Source of the DNA: Candidatus Omnitrophota bacterium
GTDB lineage: Bacteria; Omnitrophota; Omnitrophia; Omnitrophales; Aquincolibacteriaceae
Direction of reading: 5' to 3'
DNA length: 47,502 nucleotides
Assembly: GCA_903819565.1 (NCBI GenBank)
Contig: CAIJDY010000097.1
Span: 1 to 47,502, forward strand
A program made the position numbers and the translations under genes. How positions within the stretch are numbered: the stretch's first letter is position 1; each line of letters opens with the position of its first letter. Below the pieces are notes generated by a model, which saw only the letters and a program-made list of their open reading frames with translations, was not told the origin of the DNA and ran no database searches. This document shows positions 9,757-32,731 of the stretch, piece by piece.

Positions 9757-9765
9757 CCCAGACGG

Positions 9766-9799
9766 AGCACCGGCAGTTCATGAAAGAGGCCTGGAGGGG
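9766..9799 (+). pseudogene. fossil of the cytosine-deaminase 5-prime end left by the tandem duplication
   Basis: agcaccggcagttcatgaaagaggcctggagggg matches 10661..10706 of the intact gene, apart from a 12-nt segment absent here. Confidence 0.7.
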
Positions 9800-9858
9800 T
9801 TCGTACCGAGTTAGGGGTACACAGTACCAGTTTTTTTATTCTCAAAAGGAAGTGTGCT

Positions 9859-15838: not shown

Positions 15839-16396
15839 TTGAATACTCCGGAAGCGAAAACTCAGGACCCGAAAAATCCTTCCAAGAATTGCGGCTGTCA
15901 GGCCACCGAAGAGGACATGATCCGAAGCCTCGACGCGGTGATCGACGGTTTCGCCAAGACCGACGGCGCCCTGATCCCGATCCTCCAAACGGCCCAGAAC
16001 CTTCTGGGATATCTTCCCGCCAGCGTTCTCAAACATATCAGCGTGCGCCTGAAGCTCCCTTACAGCGAAGTGACGGGCGTCGTCAGCTTTTATTCTTTTT
16101 TCTCCACCGTTCCCCGCGGCAAGCACGTTATCCGGGTTTGTCTCGGGACTGCCTGCTACGTCCGCGGCGGCAAGGAAGTCCTGGAAGCGTTCAAGAAGAA
16201 CCTCAAGATCAACGTTGGCGAAACGACGGCGGACCGGATGTTCTCCCTGGAGGTCGGACGCTGCTTTGGCGCCTGCGGCCTGGCGCCGGTGGCGATGGTC
16301 AATGACGACGTTCACCAGCGGGTGAAGTCGGCCAAGATCCGGGACCTGATCAGCCAGTACCAGCACGAAGGCGAAGACGTGAAGGAGGCCCGGTAA
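15839..16396 (+). CDS. nuoE: NuoE-like [2Fe-2S] subunit of hydrogenase 1 (HydC/HndA type)
   Basis: LIPILQTAQ...GYLP, CLGTACYVRG and GRCFGACGLAPV cysteine motifs of the NuoE thioredoxin-like [2Fe-2S] fold. The start is a TTG and therefore uncertain. Confidence 0.8.
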   Translation: MNTPEAKTQDPKNPSKNCGCQATEEDMIRSLDAVIDGFAKTDGALIPILQTAQNLLGYLPASVLKHISVRLKLPYSEVTGVVSFYSFFSTVPRGKHVIRVCLGTACYVRGGKEVLEAFKKNLKINVGETTADRMFSLEVGRCFGACGLAPVAMVNDDVHQRVKSAKIRDLISQYQHEGEDVKEAR

Positions 16397-16397
16397 A

Positions 16398-19300
16398 ATG
16401 TCCCTTCCAAGGATCGCGTCGGCGCAGGACCTGAACAAAATCCAAAAAACGGTGCTGGACGAACAGAAGCGGAACGCCTCTAAAAAGCAGATCCTCCTCT
16501 GTTCGGGCGCCGGGTGTATCGCTTCCGGATCCCTCCTGCTCAAAAACGCCCTCGAGAAAAAGATCAAAGAGGAGAACCTTGATGTCGAGGTCGTGGAGAC
16601 CGGCTGTCTCGGGCCTTGCGCGCAGGGCCCCGTGATCGTGGTCAATCCCGATCAGACCTTCTACGAGAACCTCAAGCCGGAGGACGCCCGCGATATTGTG
16701 GACGAACACCTGCGGAAGGGAAAACCGGTCGAAAGGCTTTGCCCGCGGGATGTGAAGGACGAGAAACCGGTGCTGAAGCAAAACGACATGGATTTTTTCC
16801 AGAAGCAGATCAAGATCGTTCTCCGGAACTGCGGCAGGATCGATCCGCTGAAGATCGGGGACTACATCGCGCAGGACGGCTACCAGGCGCTCGCGAAGGC
16901 GCTCACTTCGATGAAGCCGGACGAAGTGATCAAGCAGATCAAAAAGTCCGGACTTCGCGGCCGCGGAGGCGCGGGATTCTCTACGGGACTGAAATGGGAA
17001 TTGACCCGGGTCGCTCCGGGCGACGTGAAATACGCGATCTGCAACGCGGACGAAGGAGACCCGGGAGCATTCATGGACCGCAGCGTTCTCGAGGGGGATC
17101 CTCACAGCGTGATCGAAGGCATGGTCATCGCCGCTTACGCGATCGGGGCCTCGCGCGGTTTCGTTTATGTCCGTGCCGAATATCCTCTCGCGGTTTCGCG
17201 CCTGACCAAGGCGATCGAGCATGCCAAGGAATCGGGACTTCTCGGCGACAACATTCTCGGGACCGGATTCAATTTCGATCTGGAGATCCGGATGGGTTCC
17301 GGGGCTTTTGTCTGCGGAGAGGAAACAGCGCTGATGCGTTCCATAGAAGGAAAGCGCGGCGAACCCCGACCCCGTCCGCCCTTTCCGGCCCAAAAAGGCC
17401 TCTGGGACAAACCAAGCCTCCTGAATAACGTCGAAACCTACGCCAATGTTCCCGTCATCCTTCTCAAGGGCGCGGATTGGTACGCTTCGTACGGGACCGC
17501 GGCAAGCAAGGGGACCAAGGTTTTTGCGCTGGCCGGCGCAGTGAAGAACACCGGGCTTGTGGAAGTGCCGATCGGAACTCCGTTGGGGGAGCTGATCTAC
17601 GAGATCGGCGGCGGGATCAAAGGCGGCAAGAAATATAAGGCCGCCCAGATCGGCGGTCCTTCGGGCGGATGCATTCCCAAAGAATTCCTGAACGTCCCGC
17701 TGGACTATAAAAATCTCGAAGAGCTCGGCGCCATCATGGGTTCGGGCGGCCTTATCGTGATGGATGAGGATTCCTGCATGGTGGACGTCGCCAGGTTCTT
17801 CCTGGATTTCGTCCAGGACGAATCCTGCGGCAAGTGTGTGCCGTGCCGCGTCGGGACCAAGCGCATGCTGGAGATCCTGGAGCGCATTTGCTCGGGGCAG
17901 GGCGAGGAAGGCGATGTCGAAAAATTGATCCGGCTGGGCGGTCAGATCAAAGAGACGTCGCTTTGCGGGCTTGGGCAGACGGCGCCGAACCCCGTTCTTT
18001 CCACGATCCGCCATTTCCGCAAGGAATACGACCAGCATATCCGTGAAAAACACTGTGAGGCCGGAGTTTGTCCTTCGCTGGTGCGCGCGCCGTGCCAGAG
18101 CGCGTGCCCGGCCGGAGTGGACGTTCCGGGTTTTGTGTCGCTCGTGGGGGAGAAGCGTTATGCCGAGGCCCTGCGGCTTCATCGCGAGCGGAATCCTTTC
18201 GCGGCGGTCTGCGCCCGTGTGTGTTTTCATACCTGTGAAGAAAAATGTCGGCGCGCGAGTTTGGATGATTCCGTTTCCATTCGCGGGATCAAGCGGTTCA
18301 TGGTGGACCAGGAAGTCATTATCCAGATTCCCGAAGTGCACCATAACGAGCAGAACGCCGGCCGGAAGATCGCGATCATCGGGGCCGGTCCCGCGGGGCT
18401 TTCCTGCGGCTACTTTTTGGCCCGTCTGGGCTACCGTCCGACGATTTTTGAATCCGAGCCGCGGCCTGGCGGGATGCTCGTTCAGACGATCCCGGCTTAC
18501 CGGTTGCCGCGGGAGACTTTGGCCCGCGAGATCCGCATGATCGAACAATTGGGCGTTACGATCGAGACGGGCAAACATCTCGGAAAGGATTTCACCCTTC
18601 AGGAACTTCGCGACAAAAAATATGACGCGATCTTTATCGGGATCGGGGCGCCGGGCTCTTACGGCCTGGGAGTCGCCGGGGAAGACGCCGACGGCGTGGT
18701 GATGGCGGTCCCGTTCCTCAAGCAGTACAACATCCGGGGTTCGGTCCCGATCGGGAAAACAGTGATCGTGGTCGGAGGCGGTAACGCGGCCATCGACGCG
18801 GCCCGCACGGCGCTTCGCCTCGGGGCCGAGGCCGTGACGGTCCTGTACCGCCGCAGCCAGGAAGAGATGCCGGCTTATGCCGAAGAGGTCCGTGAGGCCC
18901 TTTACGAAGGGGTCGTTCTCCTGCAGTTGACGCACCCGATGGAGATCCTGAAGACCGCGGACAACAAGATCTCCGGGGTGAAGTGCATGACCATGAAGCT
19001 CGGGGATTATGACCGGAGCGGACGGCGGCGGCCGACCGCCGACGGGGCGGACCAGTTCGTTCTGGACGCGGATCAGGTGATCGTGGCGATCGGTCAAACG
19101 CTGAGCCCGGGGAAAATTTTTGATCTCAAGGATGCCGAACTGAAAATGACCTCCACCGGATTTATTTACGCGGATTCCGTGACCGGACAGACCTCCGTCC
19201 CGGGGATCTTCGCGGGCGGCGACGCGACGACGGGTCCGTGGTCGGTGGTTTCCGCGATCGGAGCGGGAGAGATCGCGGCCGTGGGGATCGACCAGTTCCT

Positions 19301-19538
19301 CACGGGCGAGAACCACGCTTTTTGGCGTGAGGAAAAGACCGTGGACACGGATTTTGATCCGGACGTGGATCCTGTCCCATATCCTCGCGAACCGGTCCGT
19401 TCGATCTCCGTCGAAAAGCGAAAATACAATTTTGATGAAGTGGAACTTTCCTGGAACGAGAACGTGGCGCAACGCCAGGCCAAGCGGTGCCTTCGCTGCG
19501 ATTACGGTAAGTCGGTGACGCACCGGGGGCACAAATAA
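16398..19538 (+). CDS. fusion protein: thioredoxin-like [2Fe-2S] + NuoF-like FMN/NAD(H)/[4Fe-4S] module + C-terminal GltD/NfnB-like FAD/NAD(P)H module
   Basis: N-terminal part: CSGAGCIASG...GCLGPCAQGP, GLRGRGGAGFSTGLKW, CNADEGDPGAF and ESCGKCVPCRVG (NuoF signatures). From about aa 545: CQSACPAG...AVCARVCFHTCEEKC, IAIIGAGPAGLSCG and VIVVGGGNAAIDAART (GltD/NfnB signatures). One uninterrupted 1046-aa frame. Confidence 0.85.
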   Translation: MSLPRIASAQDLNKIQKTVLDEQKRNASKKQILLCSGAGCIASGSLLLKNALEKKIKEENLDVEVVETGCLGPCAQGPVIVVNPDQTFYENLKPEDARDIVDEHLRKGKPVERLCPRDVKDEKPVLKQNDMDFFQKQIKIVLRNCGRIDPLKIGDYIAQDGYQALAKALTSMKPDEVIKQIKKSGLRGRGGAGFSTGLKWELTRVAPGDVKYAICNADEGDPGAFMDRSVLEGDPHSVIEGMVIAAYAIGASRGFVYVRAEYPLAVSRLTKAIEHAKESGLLGDNILGTGFNFDLEIRMGSGAFVCGEETALMRSIEGKRGEPRPRPPFPAQKGLWDKPSLLNNVETYANVPVILLKGADWYASYGTAASKGTKVFALAGAVKNTGLVEVPIGTPLGELIYEIGGGIKGGKKYKAAQIGGPSGGCIPKEFLNVPLDYKNLEELGAIMGSGGLIVMDEDSCMVDVARFFLDFVQDESCGKCVPCRVGTKRMLEILERICSGQGEEGDVEKLIRLGGQIKETSLCGLGQTAPNPVLSTIRHFRKEYDQHIREKHCEAGVCPSLVRAPCQSACPAGVDVPGFVSLVGEKRYAEALRLHRERNPFAAVCARVCFHTCEEKCRRASLDDSVSIRGIKRFMVDQEVIIQIPEVHHNEQNAGRKIAIIGAGPAGLSCGYFLARLGYRPTIFESEPRPGGMLVQTIPAYRLPRETLAREIRMIEQLGVTIETGKHLGKDFTLQELRDKKYDAIFIGIGAPGSYGLGVAGEDADGVVMAVPFLKQYNIRGSVPIGKTVIVVGGGNAAIDAARTALRLGAEAVTVLYRRSQEEMPAYAEEVREALYEGVVLLQLTHPMEILKTADNKISGVKCMTMKLGDYDRSGRRRPTADGADQFVLDADQVIVAIGQTLSPGKIFDLKDAELKMTSTGFIYADSVTGQTSVPGIFAGGDATTGPWSVVSAIGAGEIAAVGIDQFLTGENHAFWREEKTVDTDFDPDVDPVPYPREPVRSISVEKRKYNFDEVELSWNENVAQRQAKRCLRCDYGKSVTHRGHK

Positions 19539-21310
19539 TGCCGAAGATCTTCATGAACAATAAAGAGATCACGGTCGACACGAACGCCACCATTCTGGAC
19601 GCCGCGCGCTCCACGGGCATCCATATCCCGACACTTTGTTATTACGAAGGCAAGGCCCCGATCGGCGCCTGCCGTGTCTGTCTCGTCGAACTGGAAGGCG
19701 CGCGGACGCTGGTCGCTGCCTGCTCAACACCCGTCGCCGAAGGCATGAAGGTCCATACGAACAACAAGCGGGTCCGCGAAGCGCGCCGGACCGTGGTCGA
19801 GCTCCTTTTAAGCGAGCACGAGGGCAGCTGTCAGTATTGCACGCGCAGCAACGACTGCGAGCTTAAGGCGATCGCGTCCCATCTGGGGATCGAGGACATT
19901 CATTACAAGGGGGAAAAACCGGAGAAGAGGATCGATGAAAGTACGCCCGCTCTGGTCCGGGATTCCGGAAAGTGCATCAAATGCCGCCGTTGCGTGACGG
20001 TTTGCCGCGAAGTCCAGGGCGTCGGCGCGCTCTTTCCGCAAAAGCGCGGGTATAAGACGATGATCGGCCCGGCGTTCGCGATGGACCTTGATTCCGTGGC
20101 CTGCGTCCAGTGTGGCCAATGCGCCGCCATCTGTCCCGTGGGCGCGATCCAGGAAAAGAACGATATTGATAAAGTCTGGGCGGCGCTCGAAGACAAAACA
20201 AAGCATGTGGTCGTTCAGACGGCGCCGGCGATCCGGGCCGCGCTCGGGGAATGCTTCGGCTATCCGCCCGGCACGCTTGTGACGGGGAAAATGGTGACGG
20301 CGTTACGCAGGCTCGGTTTTCACGCGGTCTTTGACACGAATTTTGCGGCGGACCTCACGATCATGGAAGAAGGCACGGAACTCCTGATGCGTCTCAAAAA
20401 GGCGCTTGTGGAGAAAGCGCCGGTCGCACTGCCGATGTTCACGAGCTGCTCGCCGGGTTGGATCAAGTTCGCGGAATATTATTATCCGGAATTCCTGCCG
20501 AATCTTTCCACGTGCAAATCGCCCCAGCAGATGTTCGGGGCGGTCGCCAAGACTTTCTACGCTTCCAAGAAGGGCCTCAAGGCCGAAGACATGATCGTGG
20601 TTTCGGTCATGCCGTGCACGGCCAAAAAATTCGAGGCGCAGCGGCCCGAGATGAATTCCAGCGGCGTGCAGGACGTGGATTATGTGCTGACGACCCGGGA
20701 GCTCGGGTTCATGATCCAGTCCGCGGGGATCGATTTCAAGAGCCTGGAAGACGGTGAGATGGATTCTCCGCTCGGGTTATCGACCGGTGCGGCGGACATT
20801 TTCGCGAACACCGGCGGCGTGATGGTCGCCGCCCTGAGAACGGTTTACGAGATCGTGACCGGAAAGGAATTCCCCGCCGAGGACCTACGCTTGGCTCCGG
20901 TGGAAGGCCTGAAGGGGATCAAGGAAGCTTCTCTGAAGATCACGGGAACGGCTCCGGAATGGAATTTTCTGGAGAACGTGGAGGTTCGGATCGCCGTGGC
21001 GCACGGTCTTGAAAACGCGGGAAAACTGCTGGAGAGCCTTAAAGAAGGAAAGGTCCTGTATCATTTCGTCGAAATCATGACCTGTCCGGGCGGCTGTATC
21101 GGCGGTGGCGGGCAGCCGCGCCACACGGACGACTCCGTGCGCCTGGCGCGCAGCAAGGCGATCTATCAGGAGGACGCCGGCAAAAAGCTCCGGAAATCCC
21201 ACAAGAATCCGCAGGTCCAGGCGCTCTACGACGAATTCCTCAAGGCGCCTCTCGGTGAAAAATCCCACCATCTCCTGCATACGCGGTATCGCGAGCGCTC
21301 AAAAATTTAA
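19538..21310 (+). CDS. hydA: [FeFe]-hydrogenase catalytic subunit 1, atypical L1 motif
   Basis: N-terminal [2Fe-2S] and 2x[4Fe-4S] domains. L2 VMPCTAKKFE and L3 EIMTCPGGCIGGGGQP are canonical, but L1 reads FTSCSPGW. 1-nt overlap with the previous gene (TAATG). Confidence 0.85.
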   Translation: MPKIFMNNKEITVDTNATILDAARSTGIHIPTLCYYEGKAPIGACRVCLVELEGARTLVAACSTPVAEGMKVHTNNKRVREARRTVVELLLSEHEGSCQYCTRSNDCELKAIASHLGIEDIHYKGEKPEKRIDESTPALVRDSGKCIKCRRCVTVCREVQGVGALFPQKRGYKTMIGPAFAMDLDSVACVQCGQCAAICPVGAIQEKNDIDKVWAALEDKTKHVVVQTAPAIRAALGECFGYPPGTLVTGKMVTALRRLGFHAVFDTNFAADLTIMEEGTELLMRLKKALVEKAPVALPMFTSCSPGWIKFAEYYYPEFLPNLSTCKSPQQMFGAVAKTFYASKKGLKAEDMIVVSVMPCTAKKFEAQRPEMNSSGVQDVDYVLTTRELGFMIQSAGIDFKSLEDGEMDSPLGLSTGAADIFANTGGVMVAALRTVYEIVTGKEFPAEDLRLAPVEGLKGIKEASLKITGTAPEWNFLENVEVRIAVAHGLENAGKLLESLKEGKVLYHFVEIMTCPGGCIGGGGQPRHTDDSVRLARSKAIYQEDAGKKLRKSHKNPQVQALYDEFLKAPLGEKSHHLLHTRYRERSKI

Positions 21311-21383: not shown

Positions 21384-22001
21384 ATGAAAAAACTCCCCCG
21401 TAAGATCATCACCAGGGTCCTTCTTTACATCCGGACCCTCGAGGGTCTGCTGAAAGAGAAGCGCTACCTCGTTTCCTCGAAACAGCTGGCGGATATCACC
21501 GGGCTTTCGGACGTGAAGATCCGGAAGGACATTTCAAATTTCAAGAAGGTCGGAAGGCCGCGGATCGGCTACAAGACCGTGGACCTGAAGAGGACGTTGG
21601 AGAATTACCTTCTTCAGAACAACAAGCTGCATCTGGTGATCTTCGGGGCGGGGAACTTGGGGTCCGCTATTTTGAAGTACCCGGGGTTCCACCGGAGCAA
21701 AGTGAAGCTCGTCGCGGCCTTTGATGCGTCGAAAGCCAAGATCGGAAAAATGATCAACGGCGTGCGGATCTATCCGGTTGAGCGGGCGCCCGAGATCATC
21801 AAACGGCGCCACGCGGACATCGGGATCATCGCGGTACCGAAGGAACGTTGCCAGGAAGTTGCGGATTACATGGTGCTCTCGGGACTTCACGGGATCGTGA
21901 ATTTTGCGCCGTGTTCGATCAGCGTTCCGGCGAAGGTTCAGGTCCGCAATATGGATTTTACGATCGAATTTTTATCGCTTTTTTGTGACATACAGAAATG
22001 A
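21384..22001 (+). CDS. rex: redox-sensing transcriptional repressor Rex
   Basis: N-terminal winged helix (RVLLYIRTLEGL...VSSKQLADITGLSDVKIRKDISNF) and a Rossmann VIFGAGNLGSAI. 205 aa, typical Rex length. Confidence 0.9.
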   Translation: MKKLPRKIITRVLLYIRTLEGLLKEKRYLVSSKQLADITGLSDVKIRKDISNFKKVGRPRIGYKTVDLKRTLENYLLQNNKLHLVIFGAGNLGSAILKYPGFHRSKVKLVAAFDASKAKIGKMINGVRIYPVERAPEIIKRRHADIGIIAVPKERCQEVADYMVLSGLHGIVNFAPCSISVPAKVQVRNMDFTIEFLSLFCDIQK

Positions 22002-22441: not shown

Positions 22442-22933
22442 ATGAATAAAAAAATGATCGAAGAAGAGATCCGGGAGATCGCGGATTCCTGGAAGGATAA
22501 AGAAGGAAATCTGATCATGGTGCTCCATGAGATCCAGAACCGCTATGGGTACGTGCCGCGCGAAGTTTCGCTAGTCCTTTCCGAGATCCTGGATGTACCG
22601 CTTGCGCGCATTTATGAAGTCATTACCTTTTACCACTTTTTCCGCCTGACACCTCCCGGCAAGATGAAGATCGCGGTGTGCATGGGAACGGCCTGTTACC
22701 TGAAGGGCGGGGCGGAACTCCTGGCGGAACTGGAGCACCTTCTCTGCGTAAAGCCCGGCGAAACGACCAAAGACGGGCAGTTCCAGCTGGAGGTGGTCCG
22801 CTGCCTGGGCTGCTGCGGTCTGGCGCCGGTATTGAAGATCAAGGAAAAGATCTACGGCGGCGTGAAGAAAAAAGACATCGGCGATATTATTGCCCAATAT
22901 TCGGATGAAACCGAGGCGAAAGCGGCCGCCTGA
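22442..22933 (+). CDS. nuoE: NuoE-like [2Fe-2S] subunit of hydrogenase 2 (HndA/HydC type)
   Basis: LIMVLHEIQNRYGYVP, CMGTACYLKG and VRCLGCCGLAPV. Confidence 0.85.
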   Translation: MNKKMIEEEIREIADSWKDKEGNLIMVLHEIQNRYGYVPREVSLVLSEILDVPLARIYEVITFYHFFRLTPPGKMKIAVCMGTACYLKGGAELLAELEHLLCVKPGETTKDGQFQLEVVRCLGCCGLAPVLKIKEKIYGGVKKKDIGDIIAQYSDETEAKAAA

Positions 22934-22952
22934 GGGCGACGCGAGAGGACTT

Positions 22953-23303
22953 ATGGAAAAACTGACGAAAGAAGGGCTGGAGAAACTCCGGCAGCAAGGC
23001 GCGGCGACGGAGAAGAATTACATCAAGGTGGGATTCAGCAGTTGCGGGATCGCCGCTGGGGCGCAGGAGGTCTATGACGTGCTTTGTGAGGAGGCCCGAA
23101 AGCACAACGCGGACGTGGAGATTAAAAAATGCGGTTGCGTCGGGATCTGCTCCGCCGAACCGCTTGTGGAAGTCCGGGTGAAAAATATGCCCCGCGTTTT
23201 TTACGGGAAGGTCGACAAAGACACGGCCATCAAGATCATGGAAAAACATGTGTGCGGGAAGATGCTTGTGAACGATCGGATTTATGATTTGAAGGTTAAT
23301 TGA
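22953..23303 (+). CDS. small thioredoxin-like (2Fe-2S) ferredoxin (HndB-like)
   Basis: 116 aa from MEKLTKEGL, with RBS gagagga. VGFSSCGIAAGAQEVY...IKKCGCVGICSAEPLVEV resembles the N-terminal domain of HydB expressed as a separate protein. Confidence 0.65.
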   Translation: MEKLTKEGLEKLRQQGAATEKNYIKVGFSSCGIAAGAQEVYDVLCEEARKHNADVEIKKCGCVGICSAEPLVEVRVKNMPRVFYGKVDKDTAIKIMEKHVCGKMLVNDRIYDLKVN

Positions 23304-23463: not shown

Positions 23464-25200
23464 ATGGGAAAGACTGTATTCATCAAAGATACGACGATCG
23501 GCGGAAAAGACAAGACGCGGGACATTTACGGGATCTTGCTGGGCATTTTGAGGGAAAGAGGCTTGGAGAACGAGGTTCAGGTGGTCCGCGTCGTGGACAT
23601 TGGGGTGTACGGCCAAGGGGTGGCGATGCGGGTGCTGCCCGAAAATTTTCTTTATTCGCATGTCGAGGAAACAGATATTGCGGGGATCGTGGAGCAAAGT
23701 CTTCTCGCTGGCAAACCGCTGGCGGCCAAGCTCGTTGCGGAAGATTCCAAGCAATTGCGTATCGTGTTACGTAACTGCGGGGTGATCGATCCGGAAAAGA
23801 TTGAGGAATATATCGCGCGGGACGGTTATCAGGCGCTCGCGAAGGTCTTGGGCGACGCGCCGGAAAAGGTCATTCAGGAAATGAAAGCCAGCGGGCTGCG
23901 CGGCCGCGGCGGCGCTGGATTTCCCACCGGATTGAAGTGGGAGTTCACCCGCAAGAGTCCGGGGGACCAGAAGTACATCATTTGCAACGGCGATGAAGGC
24001 GACCCGGGAGCTTACATGGACCGCAGCGTTCTGGAGGGGGACCCTCACTCGGTGATCGAAGGGATGATCATCGGGGGTTACGCGATCGGCGCCTCCAAGG
24101 GCTATTTCTACATCCGGGCGGAATACCCGCTCGCGATCGAAAGGATTGAAAAGGCCATCAAGCAGTGCCATGAGAGCGGTCTGTTGGGAAAGAATATCCT
24201 CGGTTCTTCGTTCAATTTCGACGTGGAGATCCGTTTGGGGGCCGGCGCGTTTGTCTGCGGCGAAGAAACGGCATTGATCGCTTCGATCGAAGGCAAGCGC
24301 GGTTATCCGAGCCCGCGCCCTCCGTTCCCGTCGGTCAAGGGACTGTGGGGAAAACCGACCTGCATCAATAACGTGGAGACGCTGGCGAACATCCCGGTGA
24401 TCCTGTTCAAGGGAGGCGCTTGGTTCGCGGGGATCGGGACCGCGTCCTCCAAAGGCACGAAAGTTTTTGCGGTGACCGGTAAGGTCAAGAATTCCGGGCT
24501 GGTGGAAGTCCCGATGGGAACGACGATCGAGGACATTGTTTACGGGATCGGCGGCGGCGCGATGCCCGGGAAGTCGGTCAAGGCGATCCAGACCGGCGGG
24601 CCGTCGGGCGGGGTGATCCCGAAGGAATATTTCAGGACCAAGGTGGATTACGAGAGCCTTCAGCAGATGGGCTCCATCATGGGGTCCGGCGGCATGATCG
24701 TGATGGACGAGGATGATTGCATGGCGGACATCGCGAAATTTTATCTCGGGTTTTGCGTGGACGAATCCTGCGGGAAATGTGCTCCCTGCCGTATCGGGGG
24801 AACGCAGATGTTGCGACTTCTCAAAAAGGTGACGGAGGGGGAAGGGACGCCCAAGGATCTCGACCAGCTCGAGCAGATCTCTCACGCCATGCAAAAAGCC
24901 TCGCTTTGCGGCCTTGGGCAGACGGCGGCTAATCCCGTACTTTCGACGCTGCATTATTACCGCGCCGAATATGACGCGCACGTGAACAATAAAAAATGCC
25001 CGGCCTGCAAGTGCGCCAAACTGGTCCGGTTCCTGATCCTGAGCGAAAAATGCGTGAAGTGCGGCATGTGTTTCAAGGCGTGCCCGGTCAACGCGATTTC
25101 CGGGAACCGCGAGAGCGGCTATCTGATCGATCAAACGAAATGTATCCGCTGCGGTCAATGTTTCGAGGTCTGTAAACCTCGCGCCATTAATCGCAGTTAA
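23464..25200 (+). CDS. nuoF: NuoF-like subunit of hydrogenase 2 (HndC/HydB type) with C-terminal 2x[4Fe-4S] ferredoxin domain
   Basis: GLRGRGGAGFPTGLKW, CNGDEGDPGAY, ESCGKCAPCRIG, then CVKCGMCFKACP and CIRCGQCFEVC. The first ~95 aa have the thioredoxin-like layout but no cysteines. Confidence 0.9.
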   Translation: MGKTVFIKDTTIGGKDKTRDIYGILLGILRERGLENEVQVVRVVDIGVYGQGVAMRVLPENFLYSHVEETDIAGIVEQSLLAGKPLAAKLVAEDSKQLRIVLRNCGVIDPEKIEEYIARDGYQALAKVLGDAPEKVIQEMKASGLRGRGGAGFPTGLKWEFTRKSPGDQKYIICNGDEGDPGAYMDRSVLEGDPHSVIEGMIIGGYAIGASKGYFYIRAEYPLAIERIEKAIKQCHESGLLGKNILGSSFNFDVEIRLGAGAFVCGEETALIASIEGKRGYPSPRPPFPSVKGLWGKPTCINNVETLANIPVILFKGGAWFAGIGTASSKGTKVFAVTGKVKNSGLVEVPMGTTIEDIVYGIGGGAMPGKSVKAIQTGGPSGGVIPKEYFRTKVDYESLQQMGSIMGSGGMIVMDEDDCMADIAKFYLGFCVDESCGKCAPCRIGGTQMLRLLKKVTEGEGTPKDLDQLEQISHAMQKASLCGLGQTAANPVLSTLHYYRAEYDAHVNNKKCPACKCAKLVRFLILSEKCVKCGMCFKACPVNAISGNRESGYLIDQTKCIRCGQCFEVCKPRAINRS

Positions 25201-25243: not shown

Positions 25244-26995
25244 ATGGTTAAGGCAGTGATCAACGGTTTAAAGGTCGAAGTCCTGGAAGGGACCACGATC
25301 CTCGACGCGGCGAAAAAAGTCCAGACGAAGATTCCGACCCTTTGCAAACATCCCGACGCCTACCTGCACGCTTCCGCGGCCTGCGGGATCTGCATCGTGA
25401 GGGTCAAAGGCACGAAGAAGATGCTGCGGGCCTGCTGCACGCCCTTGGAAGAAGGCATGGATATCGTGACCCACGATCCCGAGATCGTTTCGATCCGTAG
25501 GACGGTGCTCGAGCTGATCCTTTCCAATCATCCCAATGAATGCCTGACCTGCGGCCGCAGCAACAATTGCGAACTCCAGTCCGCGGTGGCGGATTTCGGG
25601 ATCCGGGAGGAATATTTCGAAAAGATCGTCAAGGATATTCCCAAGGACGATTCGACGGGGAATATCGTGCTGGAGCCGCGCAAGTGTATTAATTGCGGCC
25701 GCTGCGTCGACGTCTGCCAGAACGTTCAGGACGTTTGGGCCCTGACTTTTTTACACCGCGGGATCAACACGCGGATGGCGCCGGCGGGGGACATCAGCCT
25801 CGCGGAGTCACCGTGCGTGCGCTGCGGCCAGTGCTCCGCACACTGCCCGACGGGCGCTATCGTCGAAAAAGACGATACCCGACTCGCATGGAAAGCCCTT
25901 CGCGACCCCGAACAATATTGCGTGGTCCAGATCGCCCCGGCGGTCCGCGTTGCCCTCGGCGAGGCTTTTGGTTTCCCGATCGGGACGAACGTCACGAAAA
26001 AGATGTACGCGGCATTGCGGCGCATGGGTTTTAAAGGGGTCTTTGACACGAACTTTGCCGCGGACGTGACGATCATGGAAGAGGCGAGCGAATTCATCGA
26101 GCGGTTCGTCCATAAGAAGAACGTGCTGCCGCTCATCACAACCTGCTGCCCGTCCTGGGTGGATTTTATGGAGAAGTTCCACGGGGACATGATCCCGCAC
26201 TTCTCCTCCGCGAAATCCCCGCACGAGATGATGGGCGTGCTGATCAAGACCTATTACGCGGAAAAAAACAAACTGGATCCGGCGAAGATTAAGGTCATTT
26301 CCATCATGCCGTGCACGGCCAAAAAATTCGAGATCTCGCGGAGCCGCGAGATGTCCGCGTCGGGCTTTCAGGACGTGGACGTGGTGCTGACGACCCGGGA
26401 ACTGGCGCGCATGATCAAGCAGTCGTGCATCGATTTTCCGAGCCTGCCGGACGAGGATTGCGACCATATCCTGGGAGAGTACAGCGGCGCGGGAACGATC
26501 TTCGGGGCCACCGGCGGGGTGATGGAAGCTGCGCTCCGTACGGCCTATTCTTTTGTGACCGGAGAGAAGCTTCCCAAGGTCGAGTTCGGGAACGTCCGCG
26601 GACTGAAGGGGGTCAAAGAAACCTCGGTGGAGATCGAAGGCAAACAAGTGAGGATCGCGGTGGCGCACGGCTTGGCGAACGTGGAGTACGTGCTGAACCT
26701 GGTGCGGATAGCGCAAAAAGCAGGGATGCCGCCGCCGTTCCATTTTATCGAAGTGATGGCGTGTCCGGGCGGTTGCGTGGGCGGCGGCGGACAGCCTTAT
26801 GGCGTTACCAATGAATTGCGCATCGCGAGGGCTAAGGGCCTTTATTCGGATGATGAAGCTCAGACTATTCGATGTTCGCATGAGAATCCTTACGTGCTGC
26901 AACTTTACAAAGAGTTCCTCGACAAGCCTCTCAGCGAGAAGGCGGAAAAGTTGCTTCACACGCATTATCAGAAGATGCCGGTTTACCGGCGGTAG
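25244..26995 (+). CDS. hydA: [FeFe]-hydrogenase catalytic subunit 2 (HndD/HydA type), canonical H-cluster motifs
   Basis: L1 TTCCPSW, L2 IMPCTAKKFE and L3 EVMACPGGCVGGGGQP, plus N-terminal [2Fe-2S] and two [4Fe-4S] motifs (CINCGRCVDVC, CVRCGQCSAHCP). Confidence 0.92.
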   Translation: MVKAVINGLKVEVLEGTTILDAAKKVQTKIPTLCKHPDAYLHASAACGICIVRVKGTKKMLRACCTPLEEGMDIVTHDPEIVSIRRTVLELILSNHPNECLTCGRSNNCELQSAVADFGIREEYFEKIVKDIPKDDSTGNIVLEPRKCINCGRCVDVCQNVQDVWALTFLHRGINTRMAPAGDISLAESPCVRCGQCSAHCPTGAIVEKDDTRLAWKALRDPEQYCVVQIAPAVRVALGEAFGFPIGTNVTKKMYAALRRMGFKGVFDTNFAADVTIMEEASEFIERFVHKKNVLPLITTCCPSWVDFMEKFHGDMIPHFSSAKSPHEMMGVLIKTYYAEKNKLDPAKIKVISIMPCTAKKFEISRSREMSASGFQDVDVVLTTRELARMIKQSCIDFPSLPDEDCDHILGEYSGAGTIFGATGGVMEAALRTAYSFVTGEKLPKVEFGNVRGLKGVKETSVEIEGKQVRIAVAHGLANVEYVLNLVRIAQKAGMPPPFHFIEVMACPGGCVGGGGQPYGVTNELRIARAKGLYSDDEAQTIRCSHENPYVLQLYKEFLDKPLSEKAEKLLHTHYQKMPVYRR

Positions 26996-27518: not shown

Positions 27519-28907
27519 ATGGAATACCACACAGAAAAAGACGGGCTCGGAGAAAAACAGGTCCCGAACGAAGTTTATTGGGGGATCCATACCCAGCGGG
27601 CGCTCGAGAATTTCCGCTTGAGCTCGCTGAAAGTCCCTTTCGATTTGATCCTTGGGATCGTTCAGGTTAAAAAAGCCGCGTGCCTCGCGAACGCCGCGCT
27701 CGGTTATTTGCCATCCGGAAAAGCGGAGAAGATCCTGGCGGCCTGCGAGGAAGTTCTGGACGGGAAATTCCCGGATGCCTGGCCGCTTGACGCCCTCCAG
27801 GGCGGGGCCGGCACTTCCACGAACATGAACGTCAATGAAGTGATCGCGAACCGCGCGAACGAACTTCTGGGTGGGACCCGGGGACAAAAGACACCGGTCC
27901 ATCCCATCGAAGACGTGAACATGCATCAATCGACCAACGACGTTTATCCCACAGCGCTCAGGATCGCGGCGATCCGCGGCCTGCAGGCGTTAAGCCAGGC
28001 GGCGGCGCGGCTCCAGGGCGCGTTTCAATCCAAGGAAAAGGAATTCGCGCACGTCGTGAAGATAGGCCGTACGGAGATGCAGGCGGCCGTTCCGATGACG
28101 CTGGGGGCCGAGTTCGCCGCGTTCGCCGAAGCGGCGGGCCGCGACCGCTGGCGTACTTTCAAAAGCGAAGAACGGCTCCGGATGGTGAATCTGGGCGGCA
28201 CCGCGATCGGGACCGGACTCGGCGCGCCGCAAAGCTACATTTTCCTTGTGATCGAAAAACTGCGGGAGGTCACGGGGCTTGGCCTCGGACGCGGCGAAAA
28301 CACGGTCGACCTCACGGCCAATCTCGACCCGTTCGTGGAAGTGTCGGGCATTCTCAAGGCGCAGGCCGTGAACCTGATCAAGATCGCCGGGGACCTCCGG
28401 CTGCTCGCGCTTCTGGGGGAGATCCGGCTTCCCGCGGTCCAGGCGGGCTCTTCCATTATGCCGGGGAAGGTCAATCCGGTCATTCCCGAAGCGGTGATCC
28501 AGGCGGGGATCCGGGTCCTTGCCAACGATCTGATCGTGACGGAAACGGCGGCCCGAGGTAGTTTGCAGATCAATGAATTCTTGCCGCTGCTGGCGTATGC
28601 CTTTTTGGAATCGCTCGAGCTTTTGACCCGCGCGAGCGATATGTTGGCGGAGCATAGCGCCGGCATTCGGGCGGATGCGGCGAAGTGCCGGGAACATTTG
28701 GACGGTTCCGAAACACTCGTGACCGCTTTTCTGCCCGAACTCGGGTATGACCGGTGCGGGGAGCTCTTAAAGGAATACCGGGCGACCGGAGGGAACAACC
28801 TGAGGAAATTCCTTGAGGAAAAGCTCGGCGAATCGCTTGTTTTAAAAATTCTTTCCCCTCAAAATCTGACCTCCCTGGGATACAAGGACCGTGGAAAAAA
28901 CGCCTAA
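27519..28907 (+). CDS. aspA: aspartate ammonia-lyase family protein (fumarate lyase superfamily)
   Basis: GTSTNMNVNEV, MHQSTNDVYPTA and the signature GSSIMPGKVNPVIPEA. 462 aa. Confidence 0.85.
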   Translation: MEYHTEKDGLGEKQVPNEVYWGIHTQRALENFRLSSLKVPFDLILGIVQVKKAACLANAALGYLPSGKAEKILAACEEVLDGKFPDAWPLDALQGGAGTSTNMNVNEVIANRANELLGGTRGQKTPVHPIEDVNMHQSTNDVYPTALRIAAIRGLQALSQAAARLQGAFQSKEKEFAHVVKIGRTEMQAAVPMTLGAEFAAFAEAAGRDRWRTFKSEERLRMVNLGGTAIGTGLGAPQSYIFLVIEKLREVTGLGLGRGENTVDLTANLDPFVEVSGILKAQAVNLIKIAGDLRLLALLGEIRLPAVQAGSSIMPGKVNPVIPEAVIQAGIRVLANDLIVTETAARGSLQINEFLPLLAYAFLESLELLTRASDMLAEHSAGIRADAAKCREHLDGSETLVTAFLPELGYDRCGELLKEYRATGGNNLRKFLEEKLGESLVLKILSPQNLTSLGYKDRGKNA

Positions 28908-30156
28908 ATCGCTCAGACTTCAGATAGGGATCTTCGGCCGGACCAACGTGGGGAAATCCAGTTTCCTCAACATGATCGCGGGTCAGGACGTGGCCATCAC
29001 CTCGCCCGAACCGGGAACCACGACCGATGTCGTGGAGAAGACCATGGAGCTTTTGCCGGTTGGACCGGTGGTGTTCCTGGACACCGGAGGTCTGGACGAC
29101 AGTTCGGTGCTTGCCGCGAAGCGGATCCAGCGGACGCAAAAGGCCTTTGATCGCGCGGACGTGATCGTGCTGGTCATGGAGCCCGGTCAGTGGACCCCGT
29201 TCGAGGAAACGGTCTGTGAAGAGGCGAAGAAGCGCAAGACACCGCTTCTTGGGATCATCAATAAGACCGACCTTCATGTTCCGGGAGCGGAGTTTTTATC
29301 CAGGGTCAAAGGTTATACGGAGCGGATCGTGCTTTGTTCCAGCATCGATCCTTCAAAAAGGGACGCATGCGTGGACGCGCTGAAGACGCACCTTCTGGCG
29401 GTCTGTCCCGATGATTTCCTGAAGCCGCCGGCGTTGATCGGGGACCTTTTACCGGCGGGCGGGATGGCGGTCCTGATCGTTCCGATCGATCTTGAGGCGC
29501 CGAAAGGACGGCTGATCCTGCCGCAGGTGCAGACGATCCGCGATGTTCTGGATAATGACGCGGCGGTCACTGTGGTGAAAGAACGCGAATATGCGCATTT
29601 GCTGACGAAGCTCAAGGATCCTCCGGACATTGTGGTCTGCGATTCCCAGGTCGTACTGAAGATGGTCGCGGACACGCCGGTAGGAATCAAGTGCACCACA
29701 TTTTCGATCCTGTTTTCGCGACTCAAGGGTGATCTCCCGGAAATGGCGCGTGGAGTGACGGCCATCGACGGACTCAAAGCGGGAGAGAAGGTCCTGATCG
29801 CCGAAGCCTGCAGTCATCACGCGGTGGAGGACGATATCGGACGCGTTAAGATCCCTCGCTGGCTCCGGCAATACGTGGGAGTGGACCTTGATATTACGAC
29901 TTGCGCCGGCCGGGATTATCCGGACGACCTCGAAAAATACAAACTGATCATTCATTGCGGTTCCTGCATGCTCACCCGGAGGGAGACCCTTTTCCGGATC
30001 CAGCAGGCGAAACAAAAAGGCGTGCCAATCACCAATTACGGGGTCGCGATCTCTTTCGTTCAGGGCGTGCTGGAGCGGACACTGGCTCCTTTTCCCGCCG
30101 CGCTGGATGCTTATCAAAGACAATTACTTATTGTAAGAAAAGGAAAGAAGACATGA
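28891..30156 (+). CDS. hydF: [FeFe]-hydrogenase H-cluster maturation GTPase HydF
   Basis: P-loop GRTNVGKSSFLN, DTGG and NKTD GTPase motifs. C-terminal EACSHH...IHCGSCM cluster-binding motif. The GTG start overlaps the aspA end by 17 nt. Confidence 0.88.
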   Translation: MEKTPKSLRLQIGIFGRTNVGKSSFLNMIAGQDVAITSPEPGTTTDVVEKTMELLPVGPVVFLDTGGLDDSSVLAAKRIQRTQKAFDRADVIVLVMEPGQWTPFEETVCEEAKKRKTPLLGIINKTDLHVPGAEFLSRVKGYTERIVLCSSIDPSKRDACVDALKTHLLAVCPDDFLKPPALIGDLLPAGGMAVLIVPIDLEAPKGRLILPQVQTIRDVLDNDAAVTVVKEREYAHLLTKLKDPPDIVVCDSQVVLKMVADTPVGIKCTTFSILFSRLKGDLPEMARGVTAIDGLKAGEKVLIAEACSHHAVEDDIGRVKIPRWLRQYVGVDLDITTCAGRDYPDDLEKYKLIIHCGSCMLTRRETLFRIQQAKQKGVPITNYGVAISFVQGVLERTLAPFPAALDAYQRQLLIVRKGKKT

Positions 30157-31637: not shown

Positions 31638-31642
31638 TAATT

Positions 31643-32731
31643 ATGGAGCACGAAATAACGCGCAAGGACATGTTGAAGTGGCTGGACGAGAAAGACCCCG
31701 AAAAGCTTTCCGGGCTTTACCGGGAAGCGTATGCCTGCAAGCTGCGGTATGCGGGGCCGAAGGTTTATTTCCGTGGGCTCATCGAGATCAGCAATGTTTG
31801 CGCGAAGAATTGTTATTATTGCGGGATCCGTCGGGACAACCGGGACCTTTCGCGGTTCTCGATGACCGAAGAAGAGATCCTGGAGGCCACAAAAACCGTT
31901 TATGACCTCGGGTACGGCTCGATCGTCCTGCAGTCCGGAGAGTGCCAGGACGACGCCTACACGGCGTTCATCGAACAAACGATCCGTAAGATCAAGAGCC
32001 GCACTTCTCAAAAAATCGGGATTACGTTGTCGCTCGGAGAACAGACCGCGGAAACCTACGAGCGATGGTTCCGCGCCGGCGCACACCGCTATCTTTTGAG
32101 GATCGAGACGAGCGACCCGAGTCTTTACGAAAAACTTCATCCCGGGGACCATTCCTTTGAGGTCCGGCGGGATTGTCTCCGGGCGCTACGCCGGACCGGG
32201 TATCAGGTGGGGACGGGCGTCATGATCGGCCTGCCCTTTCAAACCCATGAGAACCTCGTGTCGGACCTTCTTTTTTTTCAGGAAGAAGACGTGGACATGA
32301 TCGGGATGGGACCGTACCTCCCGCATGCCGGAACGCCGCTGAGCTGGCCGGACGGGAATTACGATCCTGCTGATCATTTCCGGCTGGGCCTCGTGATGAT
32401 CTCTCTGGCGCGGCTATTGCTTCGGGACGTGAACATTGCGGCCGCGACGGCGCTCCAGACCTTGGACGCGACCGGGCGGGAAAAAGGGATCGCGGCAGGG
32501 GCCAATATCATCATGCCGAACAGCACGCCGACGGCCTACCGGAAGCTCTACCAGCTTTACGACAACAAGCCCTGCCGGGAGGAGAATGCCCGGCAGTGCC
32601 GGAGCTGTCTGGAGAAACGGATCTGCGGCGCCGGGGACGAGGTCGGTTACGGGGAGTGGGGGGATTCCCCGCATTTTCTGAAACGGCACGGGGATCTCCG
32701 TGGCGCTTTTCCGAAAAACCGTCAACCGTAG
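31643..32731 (+). CDS. hydE: [FeFe]-hydrogenase maturase HydE (radical SAM)
   Basis: SNVCAKNCYYCGIRRDN radical SAM motif. BioB-like length and layout; immediately follows hydG. Confidence 0.88.
   Translation: MEHEITRKDMLKWLDEKDPEKLSGLYREAYACKLRYAGPKVYFRGLIEISNVCAKNCYYCGIRRDNRDLSRFSMTEEEILEATKTVYDLGYGSIVLQSGECQDDAYTAFIEQTIRKIKSRTSQKIGITLSLGEQTAETYERWFRAGAHRYLLRIETSDPSLYEKLHPGDHSFEVRRDCLRALRRTGYQVGTGVMIGLPFQTHENLVSDLLFFQEEDVDMIGMGPYLPHAGTPLSWPDGNYDPADHFRLGLVMISLARLLLRDVNIAAATALQTLDATGREKGIAAGANIIMPNSTPTAYRKLYQLYDNKPCREENARQCRSCLEKRICGAGDEVGYGEWGDSPHFLKRHGDLRGAFPKNRQP

Follow-up and report, generated by a model that had tools for sequence, protein, structure and literature searches.

Does a serine in the place of a cysteine ligand of the H-cluster make an [FeFe]-hydrogenase "unusual", or even a sensor? 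The question is raised by HydA1, encoded in a 47,502-nucleotide stretch of the Candidatus Omnitrophota contig CAIJDY010000097.1 (the whole of which is hereafter called the window), whose L1 motif reads TSCSPGW. There is a puzzle of long standing here: the Cys-to-Ser exchange at this position destroys the HydA1 of C. reinhardtii, although Ser occurs naturally in between a fifth and a quarter of the enzymes. Judging by its sequence, the HydA1 of the window is most likely a catalytic HydABC-type hydrogenase and not a sensor, and our analysis indicates that Ser305 is probably a natural ligand-position variant in a normal, active group A HydABC-type hydrogenase, that is, a lineage trait which would be nearly neutral or would tune the enzyme subtly. 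What was established here is how the sequence reads, how far it is conserved, in which register it aligns and which genes surround it, while the Ser ligand going along with normal FTIR signatures and activity is taken from the literature on the A. woodii enzyme.

The L1 motif and the H-cluster site of HydA1

HydA1 (590 aa; 19538..21310; this and all further features lie on the + strand) is encoded by an intact ORF whose start codon overlaps the stop codon of HydB1 (ATAATG), and is recognizable from its Pfam, NCBIfam and PDB matches as the catalytic subunit of an M3-type group A [FeFe]-hydrogenase. Its Pfam domains are Fer2_4, NADH-G_4Fe-4S_3, two copies of Fer4, Fe_hyd_lg_C (the H-domain; PF02906, E 6.2e-97) and Fe_hyd_SSU (a small-subunit-like C-terminus; PF02256, E 4e-24), it scores 522 bits against TIGR02512 (cut-off 406) and 883 bits against NF040763 ("NADH-dependent [FeFe] hydrogenase, group A6"; cut-off 765), and its top solved structure is PDB 7q4v_A (E 2.7e-188, 51% identity over the full length).

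The L1 motif (aa 302-308; 20441..20461) was re-read as acgagctgctcgccgggttgg, i.e., the codons ACG AGC TGC TCG CCG GGT TGG in frame within the ORF 19538-21310, and both the codons and the TSCSPGW translation are just as the original prediction gave them. In phmmer alignments against CpI, T. kivui HydA and A. woodii HydA no gaps run through the motif, and Ser305 (TCG; 20450..20452) stands opposite the second Cys of the CC doublet, at the [4Fe-4S]H ligand position taken by C300 in CpI, Ser301 in A. woodii and Cys299 in T. kivui, with Pro306 and Trp308 fixed directly after it, while Cys304 (TGC; 20447..20449) is the counterpart of the proton-relay Cys, CpI C299. The departure from the strict L1 consensus TSCCPxW consists of Ser305 at the ligand position, the relay Cys304 being kept. 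No alignment had a shifted register that would move Ser305 from the ligand position, and the residue assignment proposed originally (relay Cys kept, Ser at the ligand position) agrees with these ungapped alignments as well as with two published assignments: Katsyv et al. (2023, PMC10021017) describe Ser301 of A. woodii as standing in for the Cys ligand, which is Cys299 in T. kivui, and Kertess et al. (PMC5855289) take C115 of C. reinhardtii HydA1 as the ligand and C114 as its neighbour.

The L2, L3 and IMEEGTELLMR residues, which had been called intact, were all found in the translation. L2 (MPCTAKKFE, aa 358-366; 20609..20635) matches the MPCxxKxxE consensus and holds the ligand Cys360 (CpI C355) and Lys363 (CpI K358), and L3 (EIMTCPGGCIGGGGQP, aa 512-527; 21071..21118), whose aa 512-524 (EIMTCPGGCIGGG) match ExMxCxxGCxxG, holds Cys516 (CpI C499) and the bridging Cys520 (CpI C503). 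The proton path of CpI (C299, E279, S319, E282, R286) aligns with Cys304, Glu278, Ser324, Glu281 and Arg285, with both Glu residues and the Arg lying in IMEEGTELLMR (aa 275-285; 20360..20392), and Ser324 in NLSTCKSPQQ (aa 322-331; 20501..20530), which also includes the conserved SPQQ. HydA1 would, then, activate H2 within a HydABC-type [FeFe]-hydrogenase of group A and M3 architecture, its H-cluster site being canonical bar one position: [4Fe-4S]H would be held by Cys360, Cys516, the bridging Cys520 and, in the first Cys ligand's place, Ser305, which, by homology with A. woodii HydA, probably provides O-ligation, whereas Cys304 would still relay protons to the azadithiolate bridge, receiving them by way of Glu278, Ser324, Glu281 and Arg285.

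Retention and prevalence of the Ser variant

A sequencing error, considered unlikely in the original prediction, can be dismissed, and so can a pseudogene. Logan contigs from four independent metagenome runs (three studies) cover 20441-20461 and contain no variant at 20450-20452, and Ser is found at this position in 80 of 80 orthologous genome loci from more than ten phyla (motif [T/S]SCSPGW), being spelled by five codons (TCG 38, TCT 17, TCC 13, TCA 10, AGC 2). As the four runs agree and all of the 80 loci have retained Ser by way of five codons, Ser305 is real and selected, neither chance nor an error, and the ORF, as noted above, is intact. The question of whether TSCSP defines a clade can be answered affirmatively around HydA1, where, besides these 80 loci, 118 of the 120 nearest 90%-clusters have Ser; members of the HydA1 clade are 68-100% identical, and two homologues at 77-81% identity to HydA1 (P0031 and P0033) carry TSCCPGW.

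Beyond the clade, Ser is by no means rare. Among the 50%-identity representatives (n=123), 30 are Ser-type (24%) and 93 CC-type, with Cys and Ser having been switched at least about 13 times, a count that, stemming from NJ/Fitch, is a rough estimate, and Ser at this position in about 20% of the analysed [FeFe]-hydrogenase sequences is the figure that Kertess et al. 2017 (PMC5855289) give, as cited there from Winkler et al. 2013. A literature search for "serine ligand" together with the H-cluster returned only Katsyv 2023, and the sole match of a literature text search for TSCSP was a 2013 Melainabacteria genome paper noting the motif. Since about one in five of these enzymes has the variant, and the active, structurally solved one of A. 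woodii is among them, Ser305 of HydA1 is an ordinary, long-recognised natural variant, and the Ser is not new; the original view of a Ser-ligand HydA1 as something unusual does not hold when some 20-24% of [FeFe]-hydrogenases share it, and with them A. woodii HydABC, which bifurcates electrons and is active. For the same reason, TSCSPGW is no bar to group A membership. Degenerate H-domains do occur in the sample, and they display many L1 changes (e.g., SSSSPAW, VSNSEGI) rather than one clean Ser.

The closest experimentally studied counterpart is HydA of the electron-bifurcating HydABC(D) of A. woodii (PDB 7Q4V, 7Q4W, 8A5E; PMC10021017), whose L1, TSCSPGW, is identical to that of HydA1 and has Ser301 at the ligand position of [4Fe-4S]H (A1), and which has the M3 architecture, the L2/L3 motifs and the proton path in common with HydA1. 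Despite Ser301, A. woodii HydABC has typical FTIR signatures and normal, high activity (PMC10021017), and it is from this homology that HydA1 would be expected to be a normal, active hydrogenase. The two differ in that Ala precedes the third ligand Cys in A. woodii and Thr515 in HydA1, and they come from organisms of different phyla. Identity between the two is no higher than 51%, and the partner of A. woodii HydA is, in contrast to HydB1, a canonical HydB. An Fe-O(Ser) bond cannot be proved from the cryo-EM maps of the A. woodii enzyme, one structure of which is quoted at about 3.5 Å in PMC10021017.

The opposite outcome is known from an engineered protein, and the tolerance of Ser is thus context-dependent. 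C115S of C. reinhardtii HydA1 (expressed-protein numbering; we take C115 to be C170 in the usual mature numbering) puts Ser in the place of the same ligand Cys, beside the proton-relay Cys, and, unlike the active natural Ser-type enzyme of A. woodii, it is wholly inactive and has lost most of its [4Fe-4S] cluster. In the measurements of Kertess et al. 2017 (PMC5855289), [4Fe-4S] occupancy was low, [2Fe] was not inserted and activity stayed below 1 U/mg, and the authors called this surprising, given the about 20% of natural sequences with Ser. Cys residues enriched in the 30 Ser-type versus the 93 CC-type representatives were sought as possible compensation, and none had been gained: Cys239 is present in 53% of the Ser-type and 5% of the CC-type sequences, but is Glu in A. 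woodii, and Cys326 is common in both groups. Thr515 of L3 (17/30 Ser-type vs. 2/93 CC-type) was rejected as a second-shell rule, as it is limited to the HydA1 clade and one other lineage, is replaced by Ala, Gly or Cys in other Ser lineages and is retained in the CC-type P0125. No compensating residue explaining Ser tolerance was, therefore, found in this comparison of 30 and 93 representatives.

The remaining ligands and the relay, by contrast with position 305, hardly vary: Cys304, Cys360, Cys516 and Cys520 are 97-100% conserved in the Ser-type group. Every one of the representatives (30/30 Ser-type, 93/93 CC-type) has Cys304, as would be expected if its role were unchanged, and this speaks against an exchange of roles in which Cys304 would ligate [4Fe-4S]H, and Ser 303 or 305, or water, would relay protons to the azadithiolate bridge. 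Replacement of the relay Cys, furthermore, severely impairs catalysis in CpI and CrHydA1, and A. woodii HydABC is highly active. Such an exchange would be compatible with the A. woodii map resolution, and the neighbouring C114 was put forward by Kertess et al. (PMC5855289) as a possible alternative ligand in C115A; it is nevertheless very unlikely, given that the A. woodii model puts Ser301 at the ligand site, that the ungapped alignments leave Ser305 tied to Pro306 and Trp308, and that CrHydA1 C115S and C115D still had C114, yet did not retain the cluster. The Ser would seem to be a lineage trait of long standing that selection has maintained, belonging to a natural variant of wide distribution. 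It would have an almost neutral effect or, at the most, tune the enzyme subtly, and would be no mark of a sensory or defective protein.

Two hyd operons and a GltD-fused HydB1

HydA1 is the last member of a translationally coupled operon of contiguous or overlapping genes, HydC1-HydB1-HydA1, preceded by HydC1 (15839..16396; a NuoE-like thioredoxin-like [2Fe-2S] subunit, Pfam 2Fe-2S_thioredx, E 5.7e-49) and HydB1 (1046 aa; 16398..19538). A histidine kinase and a response regulator are encoded just upstream of HydC1, which, along with the deviation from TSCCPxW, is what could be cited for a sensory, HydS-like hydrogenase. The putative sensory HydS proteins (groups C and D), which likewise have a non-canonical L1, possess a PAS domain and have lost the relay Cys along with further residues of the proton pathway, whereas HydA1 keeps Cys304 and the full pathway, has M3 catalytic architecture and HydB and HydC partners, and no PAS or other signalling domain was found in it with Pfam. 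As the same motif is, moreover, found in the active A. woodii HydABC, the sensory role suggested originally is not supported; such a role, just as the sequencing error or pseudogene for which nothing speaks, is scarcely credible.

A second operon follows past a Rex-type redox-sensing repressor (21384..22001; Pfam Put_DNA-bind_N and CoA_binding), a gene that is also found upstream of the operon of P0124, a further Ser-type HydA. It comprises HydC2 (22442..22933; Pfam 2Fe-2S_thioredx, 6e-47), a canonical HydB2 (578 aa; 23464..25200) with a C-terminal 2x[4Fe-4S] ferredoxin-like domain, and HydA2 (583 aa; 25244..26995), which is 46% identical to HydA1 and does have the normal CC motif ascribed to it (TTCCPSW at 26138-26158). 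Between HydC2 and HydB2 lies a small ORF (22890..23303) with a weak Pfam match (E 0.0011, below the cut-off). With 67-87% conservation among Omnitrophota loci and a weak similarity to the N-terminus of HydB1, it is probably a split-off thioredoxin-like [2Fe-2S] domain. HydA2 scores 793 bits against NF040763, also above the cut-off of 765, so this model cannot separate Ser-type from CC-type proteins. Maturase genes are located 6-11 kb downstream of HydC1-HydB1-HydA1, adjoined by an aspartase/fumarase-type lyase (27519..28907; Pfam Lyase_1, 1e-76): the H-cluster maturation GTPase HydF (28891..30156; Pfam HydF_tetramer, HydF_dimer, MMR_HSR1), a HydG-like radical SAM maturase (29901..31637, as given from the first TTG, the true start probably being later; Pfam Radical_SAM and BATS) and another radical SAM maturase (31643..32731; Pfam Radical_SAM), the position and size of which suggest HydE.

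An adjacent NuoF-like HydB and NuoE-like HydC give HydA1 the HydABC/Bfu gene set, and T. kivui and Thermotoga maritima HydABC as well as HydA2 (canonical bifurcating group A3) have the same subunit set and HydA architecture (HydA1 is 50% identical to T. kivui HydA), although, unlike HydA1/HydB1, these combine an L1 of T[ST]CCPSW, in which Cys is the ligand (Cys299 in T. kivui), with a canonical HydB. According to Pfam and NCBIfam, HydB1 is composed of an N-terminal [2Fe-2S] domain, a NuoF FMN/NADH module, an NADH_4Fe-4S domain and a GltD/NfnB-like module (Fer4_20 and FAD/NADPH Pyr_redox_2, aa ~550-1040; a GxGxxA...YRR motif at aa 797) in place of the canonical C-terminal 2x[4Fe-4S] domain. It aligns with A. 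woodii HydB (599 aa, with the C-terminal ferredoxin-binding 2x[4Fe-4S] domain where HydB1 has the GltD/NADPH module) over aa 29-564 only, and its aa 563-1035 match residues 101-567 of StnC (StnC/NfnA-Bfu; E ~1e-112). The ferredoxin-interacting 2x[4Fe-4S] (B3/B4) domain of BfuB, the double CxxCxxCxxxCP of which is present in HydB2, is absent from HydB1, and because Fer4_20 and Pyr_redox_2 take its place, the HydA1 complex is not filed here as a canonical Bfu bifurcating hydrogenase.

A similar arrangement, known from genome annotation only, is found in the trimeric [FeFe]-hydrogenase of Vallitalea guaymasensis L81 (peg.3894-3896), in which GltD replaces the two-[4Fe-4S] domain of HydB after the FMN/NADH domain and was read as a second NAD(P)H site (PMC6163223). 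The Bfu family survey (PMC9304861) yielded no match when searched for a HydB-GltD fusion. The StnABC/Nfn-Bfu transhydrogenases (S. ovata StnC, PDB 8OH5, 9BOV; NfnABC, 9N5U) likewise join a GltD-like FAD/NADPH module to a HydBC-type bifurcating core; there, however, GltD is fused to a NuoG/HydA-like subunit without an H-cluster, whereas here it is fused to HydB, and HydA1 has a complete H-domain. As the Stn papers put GltD on the NuoG-like subunit and not on HydB, a Stn-like reading of HydC1-HydB1-HydA1 was rejected. A related one, in which HydA1 would be an H-cluster-less scaffold that only wires electrons (cf. Nar1 and the NuoG-like part of StnC), the GltD module would be the real input and the complex a transhydrogenase, could draw on the similarity of that module to the StnC/NfnA-Bfu NADPH module, which is its closest, on the low [4Fe-4S] occupancy of CrHydA1 C115S and on the fact that the maturases could serve HydA2 alone. 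It is highly improbable: conservation across phyla extends to all of the remaining H-cluster ligands, to the proton path and to Lys363, Met359 and Met514, a typical H-cluster is bound by the homologous enzyme of A. woodii, and the degenerate H-domains described above look different.

What, then, of the fused partner that the original prediction saw co-occurring with the Ser? Within the HydA1 clade the co-occurrence stands: fused HydB was found in 50 of the 53 loci with upstream DNA, and plain HydB in none. Fusion of HydB recurs in two more lineages of the Ser type (P0124 and a spirochaete paralogue), three Ser-type lineages are paired with minimal HydBs (413-442 aa, without the ferredoxin-like domain), and in the window itself canonical HydB2 pairs with CC-type HydA2. 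All of this, together with the general ability of O-ligation to alter Fe-S cluster potentials and the changed bias of CrHydA1 variants engineered with O-ligands at another [4Fe-4S]H ligand position, could be taken to mean that Ser305 adaptively shifts the [4Fe-4S]H potential or catalytic bias to suit HydB1, and is a signature of a pyridine-nucleotide-only hydrogenase. We consider this unlikely. In a survey of 12 contig look-ups and the 80 loci, the rule failed both ways outside the clade: Ser-type HydAs are found with canonical HydB (A. woodii, 599 aa; P0148, 597 aa), next to a formate dehydrogenase (P0129) or alone (P0180), and CC-type P0125 and P0132 stand beside GltD-type partners. The CC motif of P0031 and P0033 so close to HydA1, the A. 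woodii enzyme without any spectroscopic or activity difference, and the lack of phylogenetic independence in the within-clade association argue likewise. The presence of Ser was thus rejected as a general indicator of a HydB that is fused or independent of ferredoxin, and the co-occurrence is a lineage trait.

Significance of the variant and of its partner

The window adds an Omnitrophota member to a variant that, going by the citation in Kertess et al., has been known from alignments since 2013, with the A. woodii structure following in 2023. One genome with Ser-type and CC-type HydA side by side near maturase genes would be useful for reciprocal swaps, and P0031 and P0033 are natural Ser/Cys swaps at 77-81% identity. 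The Ser state having been switched about a dozen times, without tracking the partner type, argues against using L1 deviations alone for "sensory" or "inactive" calls in metagenome annotation. Ser305 itself matters little, and the uncharacterised fused HydB1 is the more interesting feature. The module of Ser-type HydA and GltD-fused HydB has been conserved in ten or more phyla, most of them uncultured, and, to our knowledge, has never been purified. That Ser305 is co-adapted with this HydB, with an NADP(H) site standing in for the ferredoxin site and H2 being coupled to both NAD(H) and NADP(H), is quite doubtful; if true, it might allow, e.g., NADPH-driven H2 evolution pulled by NAD+ reduction, with Ser305 setting the [4Fe-4S]H potential.

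The H-cluster motifs of HydA1

The catalytic subunit HydA1 is encoded by a 590-codon ORF (19538-21310, forward strand, as are all window genes below), in whose frame the codons ACG AGC TGC TCG CCG GGT TGG at 20441-20461 read TSCSPGW (L1, aa 302-308), just as the original prediction had it. The remaining motifs that it took to be intact are indeed so: L2 (MPCTAKKFE, aa 358-366), L3 (EIMTCPGGCIGGGGQP, aa 512-527) and the proton-path segment (IMEEGTELLMR, aa 275-285), as is the normal CC doublet of the second catalytic subunit, HydA2 (25244-26995; TTCCPSW at 26138-26158). A domain search returned the complete M3 architecture of a group A [FeFe]-hydrogenase (N-terminal [2Fe-2S], His-ligated [4Fe-4S], two ferredoxin-type [4Fe-4S] sites, Fe_hyd_lg_C with E 6e-97, and Fe_hyd_SSU), and the NCBIfam model NF040763 was passed with 883 bits (cut-off 765).

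In the C. pasteurianum enzyme CpI, C299, the first Cys of the doublet, relays protons, whereas C300, the second, is a [4Fe-4S]H ligand. Phmmer alignments of HydA1 with solved structures, ungapped from about 10 residues ahead of L1 through L2 and thus showing no shift in register, place Ser305 opposite that second Cys in both CpI and T. kivui HydA. The T. kivui Cys299 named as an A1 cluster ligand (Katsyv et al. 2023, PMC10021017) is, by alignment coordinates, the second Cys of its doublet, and in the Kertess et al. numbering of C. reinhardtii CrHydA1 (PMC5855289) C115 is the ligand and C114 its neighbour (C170 of these authors being, judging by the spacing 115/170/362/366, the L2 ligand and not the L1 one). 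The alignment and both published assignments therefore bear out that Ser occupies the ligand position with the relay Cys kept.

A sequencing error had been deemed unlikely, and Logan contigs of four metagenome runs from three studies (lake water, freshwater, freshwater sediment) span 20441-20461, with no sequence variants listed in them for 20441-20466. The motif [T/S]SCSPGW also marks the clade around HydA1: among the 120 90%-identity clusters closest to HydA1 (71% identity or more) 118 carry it, and so do all of the 80 loci related to HydA1 in genomes of GTDB species (68-94% identity, the best match to this Candidatus Omnitrophota genome being 94% identical), which span Omnitrophota, Spirochaetota, Desulfatiglans, Kiritimatiellia, Victivallales/Lentisphaerae, Fibrobacterota, Planctomycetota, Hydrogenedentota, Myxococcota and others. 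The Ser codons of these 80 loci vary (TCG 38, TCT 17, TCC 13, TCA 10, AGC 2), making Ser a state under selection.

A known natural variant

The closest PDB match to HydA1 is A. woodii HydA (7q4v_A, also 7q4w and 8a5e; E 2.7e-188, 51% identical), which shares the same TSCSPGW with Ser at chain position 301, and it has been reported that in A. woodii HydABC this Ser301 replaces one A1-cluster Cys ligand (Katsyv et al. 2023, JACS, PMC10021017); TSCSPGW was also mentioned in passing by a 2013 Melainabacteria genome paper. Ser305 is a known natural variant, of which HydA1 is another member. Unlike these natural Ser-type proteins, CrHydA1 does not tolerate Ser at the ligand position: C115S, C115A and C115D lost most of the [4Fe-4S], took up no [2Fe] and had unmeasurable activity (Kertess et al. 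2017, PMC5855289), to the surprise of the authors, as alignment suggests Ser there in ~20% of analysed sequences (a figure taken by them from Winkler, Esselborn and Happe 2013).

When 1.84 billion 50%-identity representatives were searched exhaustively with HMMER, the best 150, together with reference sequences and 14 added close relatives, gave 123 sequences with an unambiguous doublet, 30 CSP vs 93 CCP (24%, a rough figure because of these additions). In a neighbour-joining tree of the H-domain, Ser dominates the clade holding HydA1 and A. woodii and recurs in scattered lineages, with CC-type sequences nested within the Ser clade; Fitch parsimony requires at least ~13 Ser/Cys changes from a Cys root, which is rough because the tree topology is unsupported. 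The ligand position has evidently toggled between Ser and Cys repeatedly. Two homologues, P0031 (81% identical to HydA1) and P0033 (77%), each from a single short Logan contig, have TSCCPGW; as natural swaps of Ser and Cys in an almost unaltered background, they would make useful comparators. The same representative search also returned a 4122 aa protein matched by HydA1 in seven separate stretches (P0121; 2105 bits), resembling concatenated H-domains; it may be either a genuine giant protein of many domains or an artefact of gene calling or assembly.

Comparison of the Ser-type and CC-type representatives (30 vs 93) revealed no extra Cys specific to the Ser group. The strongest co-varying position, Thr515, immediately ahead of ligand Cys516, was rejected as a correlate of Ser: it is a HydA1-clade trait; A. 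woodii has Ala there, further Ser lineages have Ala, Gly or Cys, and the CC-type P0125 has Thr. Neither Cys gain nor co-varying positions thus provided a compensating feature that would set the tolerant natural proteins apart from CrHydA1.

HydA1 most likely binds a standard H-cluster, and any effect of Ser305 on it would be small or subtle. Four residues would hold the cubane, namely Ser305 (through its O) along with Cys360, Cys516 and Cys520, the last of them bridging; protons would reach the adt amine via Arg285/Glu281-Ser324-Glu278-Cys304, and HydB1/HydC1 would receive the electrons via the F-domain clusters. Of this, the sequence, its conservation and the gene context are observed here; Ser at the ligand site with normal spectroscopy comes from A. 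woodii, from which we infer the same for HydA1. Cys304, Cys360, Cys516 and Cys520 are kept at 97-100% in the Ser group. That Cys304 itself ligates the cluster seems quite improbable, as it aligns with the relay. Even less credible is a HydA1 that serves as a scaffold devoid of an H-cluster, as the CrHydA1 variants might suggest, given the A. woodii enzyme.

Gene neighbourhood

Upstream lie an NfnA-like FAD/NAD-binding protein gene (PRK06222, 11509-12432) and an NfnB/GltD-like one (TIGR01316, 12434-13840), so that the genome has a stand-alone NfnAB-type candidate plus the GltD module fused to HydB1. A stand-alone receiver-domain response regulator (13951-14343) and a PilS-like histidine kinase with 6TM (14379-15713, directly upstream of HydC1), along with two more response regulators further upstream (8962-10650), could be regulators of the hydrogenase locus. 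There follow HydC1, HydB1, HydA1, Rex, HydC2, a small ORF, HydB2 and HydA2, and then the maturase cluster of aspartase-like lyase, HydF, HydG-like and HydE-like genes (27519-32731), an order that puts HydA1 within ~11 kb of the maturase genes; the real start of HydG is probably later, because the ORF, if begun at its first TTG, shares ~255 nt with the 3' end of HydF. HydA1 is translationally coupled to HydB1 (ATAATG overlap). The sensory enzyme contemplated originally is not supported, the domain search having found no PAS or other sensor domain in HydA1, and that this Ser reflects either a sensor or a sequence error has next to no probability.

The Rex-type redox-sensing repressor gene (21384-22001) sits between the two hyd operons, and the operon with fused HydB in the distant P0124 locus likewise has a Rex gene ahead of it (L081 1194-1856), an arrangement that hints at regulation of these hydrogenases in response to NADH/NAD+. 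The small ORF between HydC2 and HydB2 (22890-23303; sub-threshold thioredoxin-like [2Fe-2S] ferredoxin match, E 0.0011) shows 67-87% conservation among Omnitrophota loci and a weak resemblance to the HydB1 N-terminal domain. It probably represents a [2Fe-2S] domain that was split off, or else a fourth, HydD-like subunit in the complex of HydA2; in locus L091 an unrelated small gene takes its position. An IS481-type transposase gene (rve integrase core plus HTH, 42652-43836) lies near the window 3' end.

The HydB1-GltD fusion

HydB1 (16398-19538, 1046 aa) is a NuoF-type HydB fused to a GltD/NfnB-like FAD/NADPH module: it matches A. woodii HydB at aa 29-564 only, whereas aa 563 to 1035 match the GltD-like NADPH module of StnC/NfnA-Bfu, and its GxGxxA...YRR motif suggests NADP(H). 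In HydB2 and the canonical HydBs generally, the place of this module is taken by the C-terminal 2x[4Fe-4S] domain, to which ferredoxin reduction has been assigned (Katsyv et al. 2023, PMC10021017); HydB1 hence falls outside the definition of the bifurcating-enzyme family (Bfu) by an absolutely conserved BfuBC cofactor core, and we do not call the HydA1 complex a canonical bifurcating hydrogenase.

The proposed co-occurrence of Ser with fused HydB stands inside the HydA1 clade, where the 53 loci with 3.3 kb or more of upstream sequence comprise 50 with fused HydB, 2 with GltD in a separate adjacent ORF, 1 unresolved and none with plain HydB, but outside it the link breaks down both ways. Ser-type HydA accompanies fused HydB there in P0124 and a spirochaete paralogue, a minimal 413-442 aa HydB in P0126, P0127 and P0134, and canonical HydB in A. 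woodii (599 aa), P0148 (597 aa) and probably P0128; P0129 adjoins formate dehydrogenase and P0180 is alone. Conversely, the neighbour of CC-type P0125 is a GltD-type HydB-like protein, represented by its C-terminal end (55% identical to HydB1 aa 914-1040), and that of CC-type P0132 an NADH_4Fe-4S plus GltD protein. Common descent in a single successful clade explains the co-occurrence best, and adaptive tuning of Ser305 to the fused HydB, which the counts within the clade might favour, appears unlikely in view of those outside it. Beside P0129 there is also a 653 aa protein (L089 6687-8648, forward strand) that joins an [FeFe]-hydrogenase H-domain to a methyl-accepting chemotaxis signalling domain (MCPsignal), its gene adjoining formate dehydrogenase and an Mrp/Mbh-like antiporter cluster.

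The HydB-GltD fusion was noted in the V. guaymasensis genome paper (PMC6163223), and no biochemical characterisation of it emerged from the literature searched. The fused subunit might link H2 to NAD(H) as well as NADP(H) and, conserved beside HydA1 orthologues across more than 10 phyla, many of them uncultured, is a more promising lead than Ser.
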